Of a stretch of DNA of 64,000 bases, positions 1-53,957 are shown piece after piece; position 1 is the stretch's first letter; every line of letters begins with the position of its first letter. A model generated the notes under the pieces. That model worked only from the letters and a program-made list of their open reading frames with translations, did not search any database and had not been told where the DNA came from. The translations under genes were made by a program, and so were the position numbers. Source of the DNA: a virus. Its lineage: Duplodnaviria > Heunggongvirae > Uroviricota > Caudoviricetes. The stretch lies in IMG/VR virus record IMGVR_UViG_3300046820_001896, one strand, 5' to 3'.

Positions 1-149
1 GCGAAAAGCAAGTGTGCCAGCACCAGCGAATGTATCGAGTATGATTCTAAATGGTAACGTAGCAAAGAGGCCTTGCACTTTCTTCATACGGAAGCTAACA
101 TTGGTTCGAATCCAATCGTTACCACCAGTTGTTGATATATAATTAGTAC

Positions 150-224
150 GCCGGTTTAGCTCAGTGGTAGAGCAACCGCCTTGTAAGCGGTAGGTCGTCA
201 GTTCAATCCCGACAACCGGCACCA
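150..224 (+). tRNA. tRNA-Thr (anticodon TGT)
   Basis: Cloverleaf built by hand. Acceptor gccggtt/aaccggc, anticodon stem accgc/gcggt with loop cttgtaa, T-loop ttcaatc, 3' CCA encoded. Confidence 0.85.
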
Positions 225-232
225 AAGTTTTT

Positions 233-306
233 GCTCTATTCGTATATTGGTATTATATCGGTTTTGTAGTCCGACGAAGGTGGTTCGATTCCATCATGGA
301 GCACCA
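233..306 (+). tRNA. tRNA-like gene, paralogous scaffold to tRNA-Arg at 1124, probable anticodon TGT (loop tttgtag), degenerate
   Basis: Acceptor gctctat/atggagc pairs with two G-U. T-arm ggtgg-ttcgatt-ccatc is identical to the Arg gene. D-stem has only 3 bp, anticodon stem 4 bp plus one mismatch, variable loop 4 nt. Confidence 0.45.
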
Positions 307-316
307 ATAAATTTAT

Positions 317-393
317 CGGAGTGTAGCGCAGTCTGGTAGCGCACCTGGTTTGGGACCAGGGGGTCCAAGGTTCGAATCCTTGTACTCCGACCA
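317..393 (+). tRNA. tRNA-Pro (anticodon TGG)
   Basis: Acceptor cggagtg/tactccg, anticodon stem cctgg/ccagg with loop tttggga, T-arm caagg-ttcgaat-ccttg, CCA encoded. Confidence 0.85.
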
Positions 394-406
394 TTTAGGA
401 GTTAGT

Positions 407-598
407 ATGAGTGATGGTGGAAAAGGATGTAAACCAAGACCGTTTAGTGTATCACAAGATGAATATGATAAACGATGGGATACAATTTTTCAACGTGATC
501 TTCCAAAAGAAGAAAACGTTGAAGAAGTAAAAGATGAAAAAGAAGTAAAAATTAAAGCAACTATCCCAGATTTAAAAATCAAAGGTAGTGTAGATTAA
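407..598 (+). CDS. hypothetical small acidic protein (64 aa)
   Basis: The listed ORF 350-598 starts inside tRNA-Pro. ATG at 407 follows an RBS taggag. The sequence is Lys/Glu-rich. Confidence 0.45.
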   Translation: MSDGGKGCKPRPFSVSQDEYDKRWDTIFQRDLPKEENVEEVKDEKEVKIKATIPDLKIKGSVD

Positions 599-603
599 TA
601 TAT

Positions 604-679
604 GCGGGATTAGCTCAGTTGGTAGAGCGATACCTTGCCAAGGTATAGGTCGAGAGTTCGAGCCTCTTATCCCGCTCCA
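604..679 (+). tRNA. tRNA-Gly (anticodon GCC)
   Basis: Acceptor gcgggat/atcccgc, anticodon stem atacc/ggtat with loop ttgccaa, T-loop ttcgagc, CCA encoded. Confidence 0.85.
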
Positions 680-685
680 AATAAT

Positions 686-768
686 GCCCCGATGGTGGAA
701 TGGTAGACACGCTGGTCTTAGAAGCCAGTGCCTAGTGCGTGAGAGTTCGAGTCTCTCTTGGGGCACCA
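686..768 (+). tRNA. tRNA-Leu (anticodon TAG), type II with long variable arm
   Basis: Acceptor gccccga/ttggggc, anticodon loop cttagaa, long variable arm tgcctagtgcgtgag, T-arm gagag-ttcgagt-ctctc, CCA encoded. Confidence 0.85.
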
Positions 769-784
769 CATAATATAGGATGAT

Positions 785-1042
785 ATGATAAAGCCATTAC
801 GTAAGAACGTTATAATCGAAGAGATCGCTACTGAAAATGTATCGAGTTCAGGAATTATTCTACAAGGTAAACGCACTGATGTTAAACATTCAAAAGTGTT
901 AGCTATTGGAGATAACGTTACAGAAGTAAAAGTTGATGATGTAGTAGTAGTTGATTGGCAGTATGCATCAAAATCATCATATAAAGATAAAACGTTTTTT
1001 GTAATCGCAGAGGAAAATGTGATTGCAGTTGTAGAAGAATAA
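785..1042 (+). CDS. GroES-like co-chaperonin (functional analogue of T4 gp31)
   Basis: The 85-aa protein follows the GroES pattern (IKPL..V.I.....S.GIIL......H.KV.AIG.....VKV.D.VV). RBS aggatga precedes the start. Confidence 0.7.
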   Translation: MIKPLRKNVIIEEIATENVSSSGIILQGKRTDVKHSKVLAIGDNVTEVKVDDVVVVDWQYASKSSYKDKTFFVIAEENVIAVVEE

Positions 1043-1043
1043 T

Positions 1044-1119
1044 CCCAATTAAGCTAATCTAGTGAAAGCGCTGGTCTGAAAAGCCAGATAGTCTGGAGCG
1101 TAACCAGAAGTTGGGACCA
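1044..1119 (+). tRNA. tRNA-like element (76 nt, anticodon loop ctgaaaa = GAA) with non-canonical T-loop AGCGTAA
   Basis: 7-bp acceptor cccaatt/agttggg plus CCA. Anticodon stem ctggt/gccag. T-stem tctgg/ccaga is perfect but the loop agcgtaa lacks TTC, and the D-arm is atypical. Confidence 0.4.
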
Positions 1120-1123
1120 ATGC

Positions 1124-1198
1124 GCGCGATTAGTATAATGGACAATATTCGAGGCTACGAACTTCGAGATGGTGGTTCGATTCCATCATTGCGCACCA
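1124..1198 (+). tRNA. tRNA-Arg (anticodon ACG)
   Basis: Acceptor gcgcgat/attgcgc, D-stem gtat/atat, anticodon stem cgagg/cttcg with loop ctacgaa, T-arm ggtgg-ttcgatt-ccatc, CCA encoded. Confidence 0.8.
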
Positions 1199-1206
1199 GA
1201 GACAGT

Positions 1207-1301
1207 GCTCCTGTAGTTTAACGGTAAAACTCCAAGCTTATACCTTGGCGATGTCTCTAGATGAGGGAATGATATCGGTTCGAATCCGGTCGGGAGTACC
1301 A
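1207..1301 (+). tRNA. type-II-like tRNA (95 nt) with anticodon TAT and a 25-nt variable region; identity uncertain (Ile-UAU-like or a mutated Leu scaffold)
   Basis: Acceptor gctcctg/cgggagt with two G-U pairs. D-arm gttt-aacggta-aaac. Perfect anticodon stem ccaag/cttgg with loop cttatac. T-arm atcgg-ttcgaat-ccggt. Discriminator is A and CCA is encoded. Confidence 0.55.
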
Positions 1302-1309
1302 AAGTACTA

Positions 1310-1340
1310 CATGTACAAATTGTGTTGAATGTGATATAAT
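1310..1340 (+). promoter_or_regulatory. sigma70-like early promoter, member of reiterated family (cATGTACA -35-like, 17-nt spacer, TGtGaTATAAT extended -10)
   Basis: catgtaca at 1310-1317 and tataat at 1335-1340. The same architecture recurs about 10 times in the window, each time 20-45 nt upstream of a plus-strand ATG. Confidence 0.6.
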
Positions 1341-1365
1341 AGATTATACATTGTAAAGGAATAAT

Positions 1366-1941
1366 ATGCAAATCAATCTTCGTAAAGCAAACGCTATTCA
1401 GTCTGAAATCCGCAAGGCAATCAGCAGCGTAAAGGTAGAAAATAACATCACAGTAAGTGAATTCACTAGTGATGTAGATGCAGCTTTGAGTAAAGGTGCA
1501 TTAGAGTTCAACCAAGCGGTTGAACGTAAAGAAGCGCTTAACGATGCGCTATTCCAAATTCGTGCTGCAGTTGGTCGTGCAAACGCATCTGCAGGTATTA
1601 GCGATCTTTTGGCTGAAGTTGAAAACTTCGATGCGAAGATCAACCTAAAAACAGTTGTTGCAACAAGCACACCACGTAAAGAGATCACAGAGATCAATGC
1701 ACGTATCGTGAAAGCTAAGTCTGCTACTGGCGATAGAATGTCACTGTATGGTGATCGTCTAAGCAACGTAGAAACTGGTGTTGCAACAGAAGAAGCTATT
1801 CGCGTAGCTAAAGAGGAAGTAAAACGCCTTAAGCGCGAAAAGCAAGCATTAAGCGATAAGCTTTTGCAGTTGAATGTCAATACTCTAATTGAGTTGACAG
1901 ATAAAACAAAGGTAACTTTGACTGCAGAAGGCATTATCTAA
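1366..1941 (+). CDS. hypothetical protein (191 aa, predicted alpha-helical)
   Basis: RBS aaagga 8 nt upstream, and the promoter at 1310-1340 precedes it. The overlapping minus ORF 1398-1934 is rejected. Confidence 0.6.
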   Translation: MQINLRKANAIQSEIRKAISSVKVENNITVSEFTSDVDAALSKGALEFNQAVERKEALNDALFQIRAAVGRANASAGISDLLAEVENFDAKINLKTVVATSTPRKEITEINARIVKAKSATGDRMSLYGDRLSNVETGVATEEAIRVAKEEVKRLKREKQALSDKLLQLNVNTLIELTDKTKVTLTAEGII

Positions 1942-1944
1942 AGT

Positions 1945-2205
1945 TTTGAAGATAGTGATGATAGGAGAGCCTTGCATTTTGACAAGCGCACAAAACTATC
2001 CATTACTGGATAGGTTTAAGCCCTGAAAGCTTAATCCGAACAATCGACCAACTTATACATAATTGCTCTCGAATAACATGACTCGAAAAGTCGCTGCTTA
2101 TTGCTCTCGAGAACCAATTGTTTGTGGTCTGCTTATTGCAAATTGCTTAATGCAGATTGCTGAGCGACTTGTCGCAGGTTTGAATTGATTCATTATCTTC
2201 ATCTT
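1945..2205. repeat. non-coding region with short direct repeats (ttgctctcgaRaac x2, cttattgc x3) and hairpin gcgac-ttg-tcgc
   Basis: No ORF with a start and RBS in 260 bp. Repeats seen by eye. It sits between a CDS and tRNA-Trp. Confidence 0.4.
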
Positions 2206-2210
2206 AATAT

Positions 2211-2284
2211 GTCTCGGTGGTGTAATGGCAGCACTGCGGTCTCCAAAACCGTTAGTGGGGGTTCGAGTCCCTCCCGGGATGCCA
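2211..2284 (+). tRNA. tRNA-Trp (anticodon CCA)
   Basis: Acceptor gtctcgg/ccgggat, anticodon stem gcggt/accgt with loop ctccaaa, T-arm ggggg-ttcgagt-ccctc, CCA encoded. Confidence 0.8.
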
Positions 2285-2341
2285 AACAATGGCGTGGGTA
2301 GCAAGGAAAGATAGATTAGATTCTACACCTGCGTCGCCAAT

Positions 2342-2415
2342 GCGGGATTAGTTTAGTGGTAAAACGACATCCTTCCAAGTTGTAGTTGCGAGTTCGATTC
2401 TCGCATCCCGCTCCA
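2342..2415 (+). tRNA. tRNA-Gly (anticodon TCC)
   Basis: Perfect acceptor gcgggat/atcccgc. Anticodon stem acatc/gttgt has one internal mismatch, loop cttccaa. T-arm gcgag-ttcgatt-ctcgc, CCA encoded. Confidence 0.7.
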
Positions 2416-2443
2416 ATAAAGAATTGCTGCTAATTTTTAAAGA

Positions 2444-2677
2444 ATGTTTTATATAATAACTAAAGATGGTTTCACATTGAATGCTAGTCCAACGTTGGAT
2501 GATGCAATGATTTTTGCTAAACATTATGGACGGTTTGTAACCATCAAAGGGAAAGATTTTGAAGCATGTGGTGTATTTGGCGTAGATTCTATTAAAGACG
2601 GAATATGTCCAGATGGCATTGCATATGATTGGAATAAAAAATCACGCATTGGTCGTGTAAAGAAAGAACGTAAATGA
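2444..2677 (+). CDS. hypothetical protein (77 aa)
   Basis: ORF lying between tRNA genes, with a basic C-terminus. Confidence 0.45.
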   Translation: MFYIITKDGFTLNASPTLDDAMIFAKHYGRFVTIKGKDFEACGVFGVDSIKDGICPDGIAYDWNKKSRIGRVKKERK

Positions 2678-2705
2678 AACGAAAACATAAACCTCGAAAA
2701 CCTAT

Positions 2706-2780
2706 GGGGGTATAACTTAACGGCTAAAGTACCTGGCTTTTAACCAGATAATCAGAGTTCGATTCTCTGTGCCCCTACCA
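2706..2780 (+). tRNA. tRNA-Lys (anticodon TTT)
   Basis: Acceptor gggggta/tgcccct, D-stem actt/aagt, anticodon loop cttttaa, T-arm cagag-ttcgatt-ctctg, CCA encoded. Confidence 0.8.
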
Positions 2781-2818
2781 TAAATCAAAGTATATTCACT
2801 GAGTGTATTTCGATCTAT

Positions 2819-2892
2819 GGTGTTAGTAGTGTAGTGGCTGCACGATTGTCTGTGAAACAATAAGAGAGGGTTCGATTCCCCCTTTCACCCCA
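2819..2892 (+). tRNA. tRNA-His (anticodon GTG), with extra 5' G pairing to C73
   Basis: Perfect anticodon stem attgt/acaat with loop ctgtgaa. T-arm gaggg-ttcgatt-ccccc. Acceptor has two internal T-T mismatches and the CCA is only partly encoded. Confidence 0.55.
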
Positions 2893-2900
2893 AAATTTAT

Positions 2901-2974
2901 GCCTCGGTAGTTTAAAAGTAGAACACCCTCCTTACAAGTGGAAGACGGCGGAGCGTTACCGCAACGAGGTACCA
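2901..2974 (+). tRNA. tRNA-like element or pseudo-tRNA with non-canonical T-loop AGCGTTA (same oddity as 1044-1119)
   Basis: Acceptor gcctcgg/acgaggt gives 6 of 7 bp, followed by A-CCA. T-stem ggcgg/ccgca. No good anticodon stem could be formed (candidate loop cttacaa). Confidence 0.3.
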
Positions 2975-3010
2975 AGATAAATAGTTAGAAGAGAAACAAA
3001 TGAGGTAGTT

Positions 3011-3568
3011 ATGAATGTGCTGGCATTAGACGTAGGTGGAATTCCACGTCAATGGTTAAACTTAGAACAAGCTATATTGTATCAAGCTAAAGGCCAAGTT
3101 GCTTGGTCTCTTGGTGATACAATCGCGAAGTTTCGTGGAGGTGTACAGAATGATGGAACAGAATCAATTCTTGAAACACCTTCTATCATCGCCATTAAAG
3201 GTGGTGAAGGTTTTAATCCAGCGAAGTTTGGTACAGTGGTTCTTAGCAATAAGACATTATTTGGTAGAGATCGTCATGTCTGCGCCTACTGCGGTAATCA
3301 TTTTACTTCTAATCATCTTTCCCGTGATCATATCGTTCCTATGTCACGTGGTGGTGAGAATAAGTGGATGAACGTAGTAACATCTTGCAAGAAATGTAAC
3401 TCACAAAAGAGTGACAAATCTTTGAAAGAAGCAGGTTTAGAGTTACTGTACATGCCTTACGAACCAAATCACTACGAACATATTATCCTTCAGAACCGCA
3501 ATATTCTTGCAGATCAAATGGATTATCTTCGGACAGGTGTACCAAAACATTCACGTGTTTTGTCTTAA
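3011..3568 (+). CDS. HNH homing endonuclease
   Basis: HNH motif CAYCG...SRDHIVPMSRGGENKWMNVVTSCKKCNSQK. RBS gaggtag precedes the start. Located in a tRNA cluster, as T4 segB is. Confidence 0.8.
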   Translation: MNVLALDVGGIPRQWLNLEQAILYQAKGQVAWSLGDTIAKFRGGVQNDGTESILETPSIIAIKGGEGFNPAKFGTVVLSNKTLFGRDRHVCAYCGNHFTSNHLSRDHIVPMSRGGENKWMNVVTSCKKCNSQKSDKSLKEAGLELLYMPYEPNHYEHIILQNRNILADQMDYLRTGVPKHSRVLS

Positions 3569-3577
3569 ATCAACGAA

Positions 3578-3602
3578 TGGAGGCTTATGCCTCCATTTTT
3601 TT
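3578..3602 (+). terminator. rho-independent terminator
   Basis: Hairpin tggaggc-ttat-gcctcca followed by TTTTTTT. Confidence 0.75.
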
Positions 3603-3616
3603 GGATATATAATATT

Positions 3617-4162
3617 ATGAAAAGCTATATTTCTGTATTTGATAATGTTCTTGAAGAAGACTTTTGTAAAAATCTTCGAGAGAAATTTGAACGAAGTAAA
3701 GATGTTTGGGTTAGACGTGACGATAAGTTTAAAACATTTAATGAGATCAACTTCGGTCAATATCCAATTTTTGCTGAAGAGCAAAATACTATTCTTTCTA
3801 AAGTTCAGCCATACGTACAAAAGTACTGTGAGCAATGGGATATTAAATTTTTCCCAGAACAAATTGGCTTCGAACAAGTGCGTATGAAAAAATACGAAGT
3901 CGGTGGAAAAGAAGAGTTTCGCCATCACGTTGACGTAGGCGATTATGCATCTGCTCGACGTTTTCTTGTCATGTTTTTTTATCTCAATAATGTTGCTGAA
4001 GGCGGTGAAACTGCTTTCATTGGTATTAATGACGATCAACGGGTTTCACCCAAAACAGGTCGCTTGCTAATGTTTCCACCAATGTGGACACATCCTCATG
4101 CAGGTTTGCCACCTATCACCAATCCAAAATATATCGTAGGTACATACCTGCATTATACCTAA
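3617..4162 (+). CDS. 2OG-Fe(II) oxygenase superfamily protein (prolyl-4-hydroxylase-like)
   Basis: HHVD ... GGETAF ... RLLMFP..H spacing matches the HxD...H iron-binding triad. The listed ORF start 3587 lies inside the terminator, so ATG 3617 is used. Confidence 0.6.
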   Translation: MKSYISVFDNVLEEDFCKNLREKFERSKDVWVRRDDKFKTFNEINFGQYPIFAEEQNTILSKVQPYVQKYCEQWDIKFFPEQIGFEQVRMKKYEVGGKEEFRHHVDVGDYASARRFLVMFFYLNNVAEGGETAFIGINDDQRVSPKTGRLLMFPPMWTHPHAGLPPITNPKYIVGTYLHYT

Positions 4163-4172
4163 AGTACTACAT

Positions 4173-4200
4173 GTACAGCAGGATATTTTTGTGGTATAAT
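4173..4200 (+). promoter_or_regulatory. sigma70-like early promoter of the catgtaca...tgtggtataat family
   Basis: tgtaca at 4173-4178, 16-nt spacer, tgtggtataat with tataat at 4195-4200. The flanking aaagtactacatgtaca is identical to that at 1301-1317. Confidence 0.6.
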
Positions 4201-39724: not shown

Positions 39725-40162
39725 ATGCGTACACAACATCCATCAGATTTATTAACACCAAAAGCTTCTATCGTAGCAAAAAGTTATGTTCACACTGATT
39801 TAGATTTGACTTTTACACCAAATCCAGTCACTGGCGATATTAATGCTATTAAAGATATTGAAGCTATTAAGCGTTCTGTTAAAAACTTAATCTTAACTAA
39901 CTTCCAAGAGCGTCCATTTCAACCTGAAATAGGTTCTGGAGTGCGTGGATTGCTATTTGAATTAGCAGATCCAATTACGATGCATGATATTAAGCAAGCA
40001 ATTGCTCGTACTATTAAAAACTTTGAACCAAGAGTTAACTTGATTGATGTATCGGTAAACGATGATTTTGATAATAATTCATATAATGTCGACATAACAT
40101 TTCAAATTATTGCTAATGAATTAATTGGCAATGCAACAATCATACTAGAGAGATTACGATAA
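39725..40162 (+). CDS. gp25-like baseplate wedge protein (GPW/gp25 family)
   Basis: ERPFQPEIGSGVRGLLFE motif. Confidence 0.75.
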   Translation: MRTQHPSDLLTPKASIVAKSYVHTDLDLTFTPNPVTGDINAIKDIEAIKRSVKNLILTNFQERPFQPEIGSGVRGLLFELADPITMHDIKQAIARTIKNFEPRVNLIDVSVNDDFDNNSYNVDITFQIIANELIGNATIILERLR

Positions 40163-42090
40163 TGGCATCTAACCTAAGAGTTACTGAGTTAGATTTTTTC
40201 CAAATTAGAGAAAACTTCAAAACTTATCTAAAAGCTCAACAAGATAAAGGTAAATTCACCGACTATGACTTCGACGGGTCAGGTATGTCTGTGCTTTTAG
40301 ATATTTTAGCATATAATACTCACTACAATGCGGTGAATGCTAATATGGCACTTAATGAAGTGTTCTTAGATACTGCAGAACGTCGCAATAACGTTGTTTC
40401 TCTAGCTAAAATGATTAGTTATGTACCTCGTTCTGTTACAGCACCATTTTCATCAGTTGATATTGTAGTAAATTCTCCAACTGGTGCACCGGTATCATTA
40501 ACGTTAGATCGTGGTACAGTTTTTAATACTACTATTGATGATCAACAATATACGTTTGTTAATTTAGAAGGCATCACAATTACACCACAAGACGAAGTTA
40601 TTACCACAATTAGTGGTCAACAAACTTTGACTACTACGAACTATAACGTTTATCGTTTCCCAGAAGTAAAATTATACGAAGGCACTTTAACTAATATTGA
40701 ATATACTGTTGATTCATTTGATGAAGGATTCTATTTCCAAATTCCAGATGAAAAAGCTGATATCACAACTTTAGTAGTTAAAGTAAAAGCAAATTCTGCT
40801 TCAACAAGACAAGAAGTGTTTACACTGGCAACAGATTTTACTACTATTCGTGAAGACACAGCAGCATATTTCTTACAAGAAGGTCTTGATGGAAAATTTG
40901 AAGTATATTTTGGCGATGGTGTTACTGGTAAAGCATTAGAAGGCGGTAACGTAGTAACTTTAGAATGGTTAAGCACTAATGGTATTGCTGCAAATGGTGC
41001 TTCGGTATTCGTTTTAGCTGATACGATTTCAGGCAATTCAGATGTTGATGTTGCAACAATTAATAAAGCAACTGGCGGTGCTGAAAGAGAAGATCTAGCA
41101 TCTATCAAATTTAATGCTCCTTTATCATATTTGGCACAAAATAGAGTTGTTACAGCTGAAGACTATAAGTCAATGGTTGCTAATAACTATGGTGATGTTG
41201 AAACAGTAACTGTTTGGGGTGGTGAAGAGAATGATCCACCACAATATGGTAAAGCATATATCTGTATCAAACCTAAAACAGCGGCTGCGTTAAATGATGT
41301 TGAGAAAAAATTCATTATTGATAATATTTTAAGAACAAAAAATGTGGTTTCTATCACTCCAGTATTAGTAGATCCGCAATATACGTATTTGTTTTTCAAT
41401 GTTAATTTTAAATATAATCCAAACTTAACAGATTCGACTTCTGGACAATTAAAAACGATCGTAAATGACGTAATTGTCAATTATAATAACACAGATTTGA
41501 AAAAATTCGATGGAGTTTTCCGTCATTCTAAGATGACTCGTTTAATTGACTCGTCCGACGCTGGTATTTTAAGTTCTTCTGTGCGAGTATTCATGCAAAA
41601 GCGCTTACAACCTACTTTGGACGTGAAAAAACGCTATGAAATGCAATTTTCAGCTCCAATTGTGGGCGCAAGAAGCAATCCAAATGAACCTATCTTAAAA
41701 TCTAGCGGTTTTACACACAATGGAGTAACACAATACATCGAAGATCGTGTTTTATTAGCGGGAGAAGTAAATTCTCATGCTGATGAGAATGCAACGCATG
41801 TTTTACAAATGTATCGTATAGTAAACAACCAAAAAGTCATTTCAAACTCAGATGTTGGTTATATTAACGCTGATACAGGTTTAGTTGTATTAACTGGATT
41901 ACAGATTTCAGCTGTGCCAAACACATTTGTTAATTTTACAGCTATCCCAGCTTCTGATGATATTGCTCCTAAGCGTGAACAATTATTAGAAATTGATATT
42001 GCTCTTTGTACTGTAACTCCTACAATTGATACTATCGCAGTTGGTAGTTCAAATGCTGGTATCGGTTATACAACTACTAAGCGTAACTAA
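40162..42090 (+). CDS. gp6-like baseplate wedge protein (Baseplate_J family)
   Basis: 642 aa. N-terminal LRVTELDFFQIRENFKTYL ... SVLLDILAYNTHY resembles the J-like fold. Confidence 0.7.
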   Translation: MASNLRVTELDFFQIRENFKTYLKAQQDKGKFTDYDFDGSGMSVLLDILAYNTHYNAVNANMALNEVFLDTAERRNNVVSLAKMISYVPRSVTAPFSSVDIVVNSPTGAPVSLTLDRGTVFNTTIDDQQYTFVNLEGITITPQDEVITTISGQQTLTTTNYNVYRFPEVKLYEGTLTNIEYTVDSFDEGFYFQIPDEKADITTLVVKVKANSASTRQEVFTLATDFTTIREDTAAYFLQEGLDGKFEVYFGDGVTGKALEGGNVVTLEWLSTNGIAANGASVFVLADTISGNSDVDVATINKATGGAEREDLASIKFNAPLSYLAQNRVVTAEDYKSMVANNYGDVETVTVWGGEENDPPQYGKAYICIKPKTAAALNDVEKKFIIDNILRTKNVVSITPVLVDPQYTYLFFNVNFKYNPNLTDSTSGQLKTIVNDVIVNYNNTDLKKFDGVFRHSKMTRLIDSSDAGILSSSVRVFMQKRLQPTLDVKKRYEMQFSAPIVGARSNPNEPILKSSGFTHNGVTQYIEDRVLLAGEVNSHADENATHVLQMYRIVNNQKVISNSDVGYINADTGLVVLTGLQISAVPNTFVNFTAIPASDDIAPKREQLLEIDIALCTVTPTIDTIAVGSSNAGIGYTTTKRN

Positions 42091-52523: not shown

Positions 52524-53957
52524 ATGATATTTGAAATTTTAGCAGAACGCAGTGAAAAAGATAGAAAAACATTTTTTTACGATAATATAAAAAATGTCTT
52601 ATCTTCAGAGGATGGTTTCATATTTAGTGTGGAAAATAAAAAAACACACAATCATATTGCTATACCATTTTCTAAAAAATCCCCATTGAAAAAATCAAAG
52701 AATATTACAAAACTAAAGATCCAAATGGGTCTTTCGTGTAACTATTCTTGCGACTATTGTTCTCAAAAGTTTGTTGGTCGTCCACCAGAAACCAATAAAA
52801 AAGACATTGATGACTTTATGAAAAAGTTAGAGGTGTTAGAATTCACAGAAGAACAAGGTTTATCAGTAGAATTTTGGGGAGGAGAGCCATTCGTTTATTG
52901 GAAAACTATGAAGCCTCTCGCAGAAGCTATTATGGAAAAGTTTTCTCATTGGAAAAATAGACCTAAGTTTTCAGTGATCACAAACGGTTCTATCTTAACA
53001 AGAGACATTTGTGCTTGGTTATATTACATGGGGTTTTATGTTTCAATTAGTCATGACGGTCCAGGGCAAAGTGTCAGAGGTCCTGATCCATTCGAAGACG
53101 AAGAAGCAAAAAAGATCGTATTAGAATTTTACAAAATAATGAAGCCACAAGGTAGAATTAGTTTTAATTCTATGCTTAATTCTAAAAATAAAAATCGGAA
53201 AGCAATTCACGAATGGTTTATCAATTTTACTGGAGATCCCGAAGTTCCTTTAGGAGAAGGTGCTTTAGTTGATGCATATGATTTAGATGGTATGAATAAT
53301 TCACTATCTACTAAAGAAGAACATTTTGAATTTAGAAGAAATTCTTTTAATGATATTAGATCGAATAATGGTTATATTGGATTTGGAACTATATTACAAA
53401 AAATAGATGGTTTTACTAATTCAGTGATGAATCAACTACCAGCTTCTGGATTAGGACAAAAGTGTGGAATGGATGATCAACATGTTTTAGCGATTGATAT
53501 GAAAGGCAATGTATTAACTTGTCAAAATGTATCTGCTGTTGAAACTGCAATGAATGGTGAATCTCATTTAGGCGGAAACTTAGATGACTACGATAATGTA
53601 GAGTTAAAATCTTCTACTCATTGGGCAAATAGAGAAGAGTGTTCAAAGTGCCCAGTTTTGCATCTATGCAAAGGTTCTTGTATGTTTTTAGATGGTCAGT
53701 TTTGGAAAACAACATGCGATAATGCTTATTCTGATAACATTTCACTTTTTGCTTTAGCATTCGAAAAGATGACATCAGGGTATATTCCATTGTACATAAA
53801 TAGTAATGAATTATCCCCAGAAAGAAAAGATATTTGGGGAACAATATTAAGCCATAAAGAAGAACCTACTAAAAAAATTATTCCTATTATTGCTGTAAGC
53901 GAAAAAACAGTATTAAATGATGTAGAAGTCTATACACAAGCAAAGGTAACACAATGA
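52524..53957 (+). CDS. radical SAM enzyme with C-terminal SPASM domain
   Basis: CNYSCDYC (Cx3Cx2C), GGEP and ITNGS motifs. SPASM Cys series CGMDD ... LTC ... CSKCPVLHLCKGSC ... C. Confidence 0.85.
   Translation: MIFEILAERSEKDRKTFFYDNIKNVLSSEDGFIFSVENKKTHNHIAIPFSKKSPLKKSKNITKLKIQMGLSCNYSCDYCSQKFVGRPPETNKKDIDDFMKKLEVLEFTEEQGLSVEFWGGEPFVYWKTMKPLAEAIMEKFSHWKNRPKFSVITNGSILTRDICAWLYYMGFYVSISHDGPGQSVRGPDPFEDEEAKKIVLEFYKIMKPQGRISFNSMLNSKNKNRKAIHEWFINFTGDPEVPLGEGALVDAYDLDGMNNSLSTKEEHFEFRRNSFNDIRSNNGYIGFGTILQKIDGFTNSVMNQLPASGLGQKCGMDDQHVLAIDMKGNVLTCQNVSAVETAMNGESHLGGNLDDYDNVELKSSTHWANREECSKCPVLHLCKGSCMFLDGQFWKTTCDNAYSDNISLFALAFEKMTSGYIPLYINSNELSPERKDIWGTILSHKEEPTKKIIPIIAVSEKTVLNDVEVYTQAKVTQ

Follow-up and report, generated by a model that had tools for sequence, protein, structure and literature searches.

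The 64,000-nucleotide stretch of DNA analyzed here (the window; IMG/VR record IMGVR_UViG_3300046820_001896) comes from an uncultured T4-like myovirus and carries, near its start, a cluster of transfer RNA (tRNA) genes with small open reading frames (ORFs) in between. Two members of this cluster, elements 1 and 2 in Table 1, have the anticodons GAA and UAC and share a T-loop, AGCGTWA, that departs from the canonical sequence. Judging from their sequences and those of their relatives, we propose, with a probability of roughly 0.8, that they are functional elongator tRNA-Phe(GAA) and tRNA-Val(UAC) and that they belong to a widespread class of tRNAs with an alternative elbow. The cloverleaves, the conservation of the families, the covariation and the distribution described below were observed in this analysis.

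Atypical members of the tRNA cluster

The tRNA genes of the cluster follow the order Met, Thr, Thr, Pro, Gly, Leu, Phe, Arg, Ile, Trp, Gly, Lys, His and Val, the alternative elbow being found in Phe and Val. The Rfam model RF00005 (gathering score 29) matched all 14 of them, and a permissive tRNA scan of the whole 64-kb window (E ≤ 0.5) detected no tRNA-like match beyond these. ARAGORN called 12 tRNAs, including element 3 as tRNA-Thr(tgt), and none at the positions of elements 1 and 2; it found no other Phe or Val tRNA in the window. Elements 1 and 2 are separated from their neighbors by 4-10 nt, as the canonical tRNAs are. The stop codon of ORF 785-1042 ends 2 nt ahead of element 1, and element 2 lies before an HNH endonuclease gene.

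An initial annotation, made from the letters of the sequence, had described elements 1 and 2 as tRNA-like cloverleaves with an encoded CCA and the T-loops AGCGTAA and AGCGTTA, and the cloverleaf alignment bore out these features together with the coordinates. Its picture of two tRNA-shaped, CCA-ending molecules with a non-canonical T-loop inside a tRNA array therefore stood, and the functions that it proposed for them (pseudo-tRNAs, tRNA-mimic regulatory RNAs or processing signals) found little support. The anticodons, the AG in each D-loop, and the A8 and intra-D-loop helix of element 1 go beyond that description. Of the checks suggested at the time, the covariance model placed all three elements above the threshold, and ARAGORN gave a divided answer, recognizing element 3 and neither of the other two.

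Element 1 reads CCCAATT AA GCTAATCTAGTGAAAGC G CTGGT CTGAAAA GCCAG ATAG TCTGG AGCGTAA CCAGA AGTTGGG A CCA and forms a perfect cloverleaf in the Rfam alignment, with all four stems paired. The acceptor stem of 7 bp, including one U.G (1044-1050 with 1109-1115), is followed by A8 A9 (1051-1052), in which A8 stands in place of U8, and by a D-arm (1053-1069) with the D-stem GCT/AGC. Within the D-loop, an extra 2-bp helix (1058-1059 with 1064-1065) closes a UAGU tetraloop (1060-1063; A18 at 1061 and G19 at 1062). The anticodon arm (1071-1087) presents GAA (1078-1080) in the loop CUGAAAA, and the T-stem (1092-1096 with 1104-1108) closes the T-loop (1097-1103). The usual U8, which pairs with A14, is present in elements 2 and 3; in the family of element 1, A8 is conserved in at least 90% of the sequences.

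Element 2 reads GCCTCGG TA GTTT AAAAGTA GAAC A CCCTC CTTACAA GTGGA AGAC GGCGG AGCGTTA CCGCA ACGAGGT A CCA. Its acceptor stem has six standard pairs (G1.U72 included) and a G7.A66 mismatch, its D-loop is AAAAGTA (2914-2920; the A18 equivalent at 2917 and G19 at 2918), its anticodon TAC (2933-2935) lies in the loop CUUACAA, and its T-stem (2947-2951 with 2959-2963) closes the T-loop (2952-2958). C27.A43, U30.U40 and G49.A65 are the other non-standard pairs. Single-sequence folding energies were uninformative, with z values of -2.2 for element 1, -0.7 for element 2 and -1.5 for the canonical tRNA-Arg.

Contacts between G18 and pseudouridine 55 and between T54 and A58 are nearly universal in tRNAs. 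The canonical elbow (G18 G19 in the D-loop; T54, pseudouridine 55, C56, R57 and A58 in the T-loop) is summarized in PMC7912444. Both elements have A54 G55 C56 G57 U58 W59 A60 in the T-loop and AG in the D-loop at the place of G18 G19. Only G19, C56 and G57 are kept, and A18, A54, G55 and U58 occupy the remaining positions.

Table 1. Positions of the tRNA genes and associated features in the window
Feature	Positions	Strand	Basis and remarks
tRNA cluster, visible part	53-2974	+	14 tRNA genes with small ORFs in between; ARAGORN and Rfam
Element 1, tRNA-Phe(GAA) gene, alternative elbow, encoded A73-CCA	1044-1119	+	Rfam RF00005 41.0 bits (1044-1116); ARAGORN none
Element 2, tRNA-Val(UAC) gene, alternative elbow, encoded A73-CCA	2901-2974	+	Rfam RF00005 29.9 bits (2901-2971); ARAGORN none
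Element 3, tRNA-Thr(UGU), second copy	233-306	+	ARAGORN tRNA-Thr(tgt); Rfam 49.5 bits (233-303)
Promoter-like site, extended -10 TGTGATATAAT, motif AAGTACTACATGTACA upstream	1302-1340	+	Consensus scan
Second copy of the promoter-like site	4162-4200
HNH endonuclease gene	3011-3568		Directly after the tRNA array; PHROG match
Intrinsic-terminator-like hairpin followed by a T-run	3575-3598	+	3' of the HNH gene

Covariation in the elbow and distribution of the class

Covariation was counted in the 1286 tRNAs that ARAGORN called in phage loci, because a relaxed T-loop-anchored finder (A[GT]CGTNN) gave false positives, such as those at 39807(+) and 20341(-) of the window, both within coding sequence and unmatched by Rfam. 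The D-loop followed the T-loop closely. With U54-U55/A58 loops it carried GG in 1056 tRNAs and AG in 17, with A54-G55/U58 loops AG in 51 and GG in one, with U54-G55/A58 loops AG in 16 and GG in two, and with A54-U55/U58 loops GG in all 36 and AG in none. Over 1581 distinct sequences, the odds ratio of the association between positions 18 and 55 was about 1100. In the same set, the combination at positions 54 and 58 was U/A in 1290 sequences, A/U in 180, A/A in 21, C/A in 11, G/G or G/A in six and U/U in two. Position 60 switched together with this pair, a pyrimidine accompanying U54/A58 and an A accompanying A54/U58. The residues G19, C56, G53 and C61 were invariant in both the Phe and the Val families.

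A single Phe scaffold occurs in both states of the 18:55 pair. The Pseudomonas phages Boevelstad (UGGU with AUCGUAA) and PaoP5 (AGGU with AUCGUUA) have one of them, and the window (UAGU with AGCGUAA) has the other. On this comparative evidence, the odd T-loop is one half of a covariation between D-loop and T-loop and not a sign of decay. Since the replacements co-vary, the tRNAs have probably not lost the elbow but build it differently. The A54/U58 pair, with A60, most likely closes a 3-nt mini-loop made of G55, C56 and G57.

The families of elements 1 and 2 were collected by scanning viral contigs of IMG/VR with the pattern CTGAAAA-N12-13-GGAGCGTWACC, which covers the anticodon loop and the core of the T-arm, and with an equivalent CTTACAA-based pattern. 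The acceptor, D and T stems are absent from the Phe pattern. A full cloverleaf was present in 93 of the 101 Phe loci and in 41 of the 43 Val loci, the latter ending in ACCA or, once, in ACCG; as cloverleaf complementarity formed no part of the patterns, these matches represent more than chance. Conservation among viral relatives, another of the suggested checks, was thereby confirmed. The alignment of 53 distinct sequences of the element 1 subtype (A1) had standard pairs in 99.1% of the pair cells, whereas shuffling reduced this share to 67.5% and sliding the partners to 47.5% or less, and changes on both sides were found at 20 of the 22 pairs. These include the intra-D-loop helix, which alternates between C-G/U-A and U-A/C-G and lies outside every filter. 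In the alignment of 15 distinct Val sequences (A3), 93.3% of the cells were paired, compared with 70.1% after shuffling, and compensatory changes were found at 17 of the 21 pairs. The anticodon loop (7 nt, with U33 and A37) and A73-CCA were invariant in both families, the loop being partly fixed by the search pattern, and the T-stem pairs from 49:65 to 51:63, which bear on EF-Tu binding, varied freely.

At shorter range, element 1 is identical at 73 of 73 positions in locus L014, against 76.6% identity over 580 bp of flanking sequence, and the copy in L081, the closest relative, has a compensatory change from A4-U69 to G4-C69. The irregular pairs of element 2 recur in its family. U30.U40 is found in 10 of the 15 Val sequences, G7.A66 and G49.A65 are both found in L244, L245, L254, L255 and L263, and C27.A43 is found in the same loci except L254. 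Elsewhere in the anticodon stem, these loci depart from the window by compensatory changes. Taken at the level of sequence, the apparent defects of element 2 are features of a lineage. The compensatory changes, the mismatches kept within a lineage and the identity in L014 therefore exclude decay.

In phage tRNA clusters, the alternative T-loop is found with about 15 other anticodons. Those seen with AGCGTWA in the same phage loci were anticodons for Ile, Val(GAC), Met, Thr, Gln, His, Tyr, Ser, Gly, Pro, Asp and Glu. The tRNA-His examples with the variant elbow retain G-1 and C73. A canonical isoacceptor was also present within the stretch fetched in only six Phe loci and in no Val locus. In L081, the order Lys-His-...-Val-HNH is kept, but the elbows are reversed. 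There it is the His gene (~1905-1981) that shows the elbow with AGCGTTA, and the Val gene (~2556-2631) is canonical, whereas in the window it is tRNA-Val that has the variant and tRNA-His (2819-2892) that is canonical. Comparison of the two arrays thus indicates that the elbow type is interchangeable within a slot. The dissimilar sequences of the swapped genes suggest that one gene was exchanged for another rather than altered by point mutation.

Annotation of these genes is uneven. The scaffold of element 1 is present, in the U55 state, in 80 Pseudomonas phage records (Pakpunavirus and relatives), where it is annotated as tRNA-Phe, left unannotated or overlaid by a hypothetical protein. The homolog with anticodon GAA in Klebsiella phage KB57 (KT934943) is labeled "tRNA-Pseudo-GAA", a tRNAscan-SE call. 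ARAGORN recognized the Val(UAC) tRNA in only five of the approximately 40 Val loci fetched and missed about half of the Phe genes. A distant blastn search of GenBank phages with element 2 gave no match.

Bacterial genomes were scanned with one genome per species, and the figures that follow refer to the 120 matches listed, which support no claim of enrichment for bacteria as a whole. Among them, 97 were chance matches without a cloverleaf and 23 passed the cloverleaf filter. At least eight of the latter are tRNA-Phe(GAA) genes of Saccharibacteria, Gribaldobacteria, Nealsonbacteria and other Patescibacteria, that is, of the candidate phyla radiation (CPR; loci L108, L123, L137, L141, L160, L171, L182 and L214). 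They have the D-loop AGAAGTA or AGTAGTA and the T-loop AGCGTTA, and most belong to a Leu-Val-Phe-Gly array in which the other tRNAs are largely canonical. Genes for FtsH and an S1-domain protein flank one of these loci and point to a chromosomal context. The other bacterial matches among those listed come mostly from tRNA clusters on contigs of Bacteroidota or of unclassified metagenome-assembled genomes.

Further T-loop variants were seen in these bacterial loci. A tRNA-Gly in L160 and tRNA-Leu and tRNA-Cys in L182 and L214 combine a TGCRA-type T-loop (G55) with an AG D-loop, the same switch at 18:55. In five Bacteroidota or unclassified clusters (L131, L143, L178, L190 and L221), tRNA-Lys(UUU) has the T-loop ATCGTTA (ATCAATA in L190), and tRNA-Asn(GUU), where present, has ATCGTGC (ATCATGC in L221), with a type-a tRNA-Phe with AGCGTTA alongside. 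These five clusters may be tRNA arrays of prophages or mobile elements.

Proposed function and alternative explanations

If elements 1 and 2 act as elongator tRNAs, both would be part of the cluster transcript, from which host RNase P and 3' exonucleases would excise them, and no CCA addition would be needed because the CCA is encoded. Host PheRS and ValRS would charge them by way of the anticodon and A73, with U20 kept in Phe and U4-A69 in Val, and UUY and GUN codons would be decoded during infection. The major identity elements, by the established E. coli sets, are retained (G34 A35 A36, A73 and U20 for Phe; A35 C36, A73 and U4-A69 for Val). In the elbow, A54 and U58 (with A60) substitute for T54 and A58 (with Y60), and A18 with G55 for G18 with pseudouridine 55. 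The outer G19:C56 and G53:C61 pairs, the surface that RNase P, the ribosome and other partners recognize, are kept. Neither m5U54 nor pseudouridine 55 would be possible, because U54 and U55 are lacking.

Several points weigh against this reading. Without U8 and with its unorthodox D-arm, element 1 has a core fold that is only putative. We infer the pairing modes of A54-U58 and A18-G55 from covariation alone. Because the loci were selected by a T-loop motif, the frequencies at the elbow positions are biased, and the statistics carry no correction for phylogeny. The selection filter also partly inflates the pairing counts for the acceptor, anticodon and T stems, while the D-stem and intra-D-loop pairs are unfiltered. 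Element 2 barely reaches the Rfam threshold and has standard pairs at three of five positions in its anticodon stem. The CPR comparison covers the scanned loci, and those genomes may hold a further tRNA-Phe.

The strongest alternative, which we nonetheless consider unlikely, is that these are tRNA-shaped RNAs diverted from translation, with an elbow that avoids the ribosome and EF-Tu, and that they serve as aminoacyl donors to a transferase, decoys for host tRNA-binding factors or regulators. The elbow is read by the ribosomal L1 stalk, the A-site finger, RNase P and T-boxes, according to PMC4810234 and PMC3664808, and a precedent exists in the non-proteinogenic tRNA-Gly of S. aureus, which lacks G18/G19 and U55/C56 and is used in cell-wall synthesis (PMC4574755). 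Element 1 is altered at U8 and in the D-arm as well, and decoding by the variant tRNAs is itself deduced from sequence. However, G19:C56 and G53:C61, the surface that is actually contacted, are invariant, and about 15 anticodons are represented in the class. The variants fill anticodon slots that are otherwise empty, as the Phe GAA and Val UAC slots are in the window, and they exchange with canonical isoacceptors between relatives, in both directions in the case of L081, which speaks against the mimic or regulatory RNAs of the initial annotation. Moreover, the chromosomal tRNA-Phe of CPR bacteria has this elbow and lies in a conserved tRNA array by housekeeping genes.

That the two elements are pseudo-tRNAs, functionless and decaying tRNA duplicates, is very improbable. 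Both were missed by ARAGORN, their Rfam scores of 41.0 and 29.9 bits are low, element 2 has four non-standard pairs, and the GAA homolog in KT934943 carries a pseudogene label. Conservation contradicts this reading, with compensatory substitutions throughout families of 53 and 15 distinct sequences, invariant T-loops, anticodon loops and A73-CCA, and a copy of element 1 unchanged between flanks that are about 77% identical. A corresponding change in the D-loop accompanies the one in the T-loop, and the lineage of element 2 conserves its irregular pairs, with covariation at the other pairs of the anticodon stem. The marks of a tRNA pseudogene, uncompensated decay of the stems and a lack of conserved homologs, were found in none of elements 1, 2 and 3.

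Cleavage at tRNAs is how such polycistronic clusters mature, and the positions of element 1 just past an ORF and of element 2 before the HNH gene would suit structures kept only as RNase P or RNase Z cutting sites beside small ORFs, but this is equally improbable, as the conserved anticodon loop, the fixed anticodon of each family, A73-CCA and the identity elements are not needed by a processing signal, the tRNAs on both sides already offer cleavage sites, and the same elbow is found in the chromosomal tRNA-Phe of CPR bacteria.

As functional tRNAs, elements 1 and 2 can be compared with systems already described. They share with canonical tRNAs (RF00005 and their 12 neighbors in the cluster) the cloverleaf of 7, 3-4, 5 and 5 bp, the 7-nt anticodon loop with U33 and A37, the encoded CCA, G53:C61, C56, G57, G19 and A73, as well as array, strand and spacing. 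They differ in A54, G55, U58, A60 and A18, in the A8 and 2-bp D-loop helix of element 1, and in being invisible to ARAGORN. The Pseudomonas phage tRNA-Phe genes (PaoP5_t10 and that of Boevelstad) have the scaffold of element 1, with A8 A9, a D-arm of the form GCTAAYY-NNNN-RRAAGC, A54...U58 A60 and anticodon GAA. The KB57 gene shares with element 1 only the A54...U58 A60 T-loop and the anticodon, and its D-arm differs. The Pseudomonas and KB57 genes are in the G18/U55 state (xGGU, ATCGTWA), whereas the window gene is in the A18/G55 state. The CPR tRNA-Phe resembles the phage genes in the AGCGTTA T-loop, the AG D-loop and the anticodon. Unlike element 1, it is cellular and has the standard U8, a standard D-stem of 4 bp closing a 7-nt loop, and a variable loop of 5 nt, and the two are not close in sequence.

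Other departures from the canonical elbow are known. In eukaryotic initiator tRNA-Met and tRNA-Ala(AGC), A54.A58 is combined with a purine at position 60, an arrangement reported absent from bacterial and archaeal tRNAs (PMC7566577). Elements 1 and 2 likewise have A54 and a purine, A60, but position 58 is U in them and stays A in the eukaryotic tRNAs, where G18/U55 is also unchanged. The Staphylococcus tRNA-Gly (PMC4574755) departs from G18 G19/U55 C56 as the elements do. However, it has lost G19:C56 (for instance, by U19), is confined to Gly and is used off the ribosome, whereas the phage class keeps G19:C56 invariant over many anticodons and has only the inner 18:55 pair replaced. The elbows of tRNA-Pyl and of mitochondrial tRNAs are also non-canonical (PMC7609411). 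None of these systems combines A54/U58 and A18/G55 with a retained G19:C56. In the literature searched for A18/G55, A54/U58, phage tRNA elbows and CPR T-loops, the coverage of which was incomplete, no description of this elbow was found, and a search with the heptamers AGCGUAA and AGCGUUA returned irrelevant matches only. The class appears to be undescribed and is inconsistently annotated.

The elbow could be a neutral alternative fold, or it could let the tRNAs evade host factors that recognize the T-pseudouridine-C loop. Carrying the second possibility further, A54.U58/A18.G55 might be a selected "orthogonal" elbow that keeps the G19:C56 face, which RNase P and the ribosome require, and removes the T-pseudouridine-C signature, so that host factors reading or cutting the T-loop are escaped; we regard this idea as speculative and rather unlikely. 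The factors escaped could be toxin or defense tRNases that cleave the T-loop, a dependence on TrmA or TruB, or tRNA-sensing immunity. If true, it would account for the recurrence of the elbow in unrelated phage tRNA clusters and with many anticodons, as well as for its swapping in and out at orthologous slots, and it would be a counterpart, at the elbow, of the known anticodon-loop escape mutations of phage tRNAs.

The interest of the class lies in a coherent, co-varying replacement of the elbow, seen in phage tRNA genes that number in the hundreds and cover many specificities, as well as in CPR tRNA-Phe. If these genes are functional, phage tRNA repertoires are being undercounted, as their homologs stand in GenBank as tRNA-Phe, pseudogene, hypothetical protein or nothing. 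The elbow would then tolerate a second architecture, which would provide a natural experiment on recognition by RNase P, EF-Tu, the ribosome and modification enzymes and a possible source of orthogonal tRNA scaffolds. It would also raise the question of whether the change protects against host factors that target the canonical T-loop.

Other features of the cluster and the window

Element 3 has a canonical elbow, with the T-loop TTCGATT and GG in the D-loop, and its anticodon lies at 265-267. It had been taken initially for a weakened paralog of the tRNA-Arg(ACG) at 1124. Alignment verified that the T-arm and the two following bases (GGTGGTTCGATTCCATCAT) are identical in the two genes, and the D-arms are similar. 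The weakening did not survive comparison with its homologs in four other viral contigs (L266-L269), which show compensatory changes at 6:67, 7:66 and 27:43. The mismatches U13.U22 and U31.U39 are conserved, and U31.U39 is kept in all four homologs. By these comparisons, element 3 is an ordinary conserved tRNA-Thr(UGU). Since the same T-arm is also found on a tRNA-Gln of another phage (locus L003), paralogy with tRNA-Arg(ACG) is possible but not demonstrated, and this T-arm may simply be common in this phage group.

The relationships of the phage were approached through its proteins and its DNA. A gp6-like baseplate wedge protein (40162-42090) shares about 42% identity with its counterparts in Methylophilales phage Melnitz and Pelagibacter phage HTVC008M and, at that identity only, places the phage near these two. 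A megablast search of positions 1-3000 against GenBank phages returned short matches to single canonical tRNAs only and no close DNA relative, and a tblastn search with a 647-aa ORF gave no match. Besides the HNH endonuclease, the window encodes a 2OG-Fe(II) oxygenase (3587-4162) and a radical-SAM protein (52524-53957), both identified by PHROG matches.

An exact 16-nt repeat, AAGTACTACATGTACA, occurs at 1302-1317 and 4162-4177, each time immediately upstream of an extended -10 (TGnTATAAT) promoter-like site. These are the only two occurrences in the 64-kb window, compared with 0.09 expected, and the repeat is probably a phage-specific promoter element. The first promoter-like site (1312-1340 in the consensus scan) is likely to be the start of the transcription unit that holds element 2, and the hairpin 3' of the HNH gene is likely to be its end.

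Three more segments of the cluster deserve mention. Between ORF 1366-1941 and tRNA-Trp, some 270 nt (1942-2210) contain no convincing gene, only a 41-aa ORF with a TTG start at 2063-2188 (+); they carry the short repeats TTGCTCTCGA and GCTTATTGC, each twice, and have no Rfam match. In the tRNA-His(GUG), the acceptor stem contains two U.U mismatches and the T-stem is irregular; the Rfam score of this gene, 41.6 bits, is the lowest among the canonical-elbow tRNAs of the window. The tRNA-Ile(UAU) at 1207-1301 is 95 nt long and scores 55.8 bits with Rfam; some 22 nt are inserted at its variable region. A tRNA-Ile(tat) with a long variable arm is also found in L087 (4672-4766), with the common insert ctctagatgaggg, and in L003 (1328-1414); such a class-II-like arm is unusual for an Ile tRNA.

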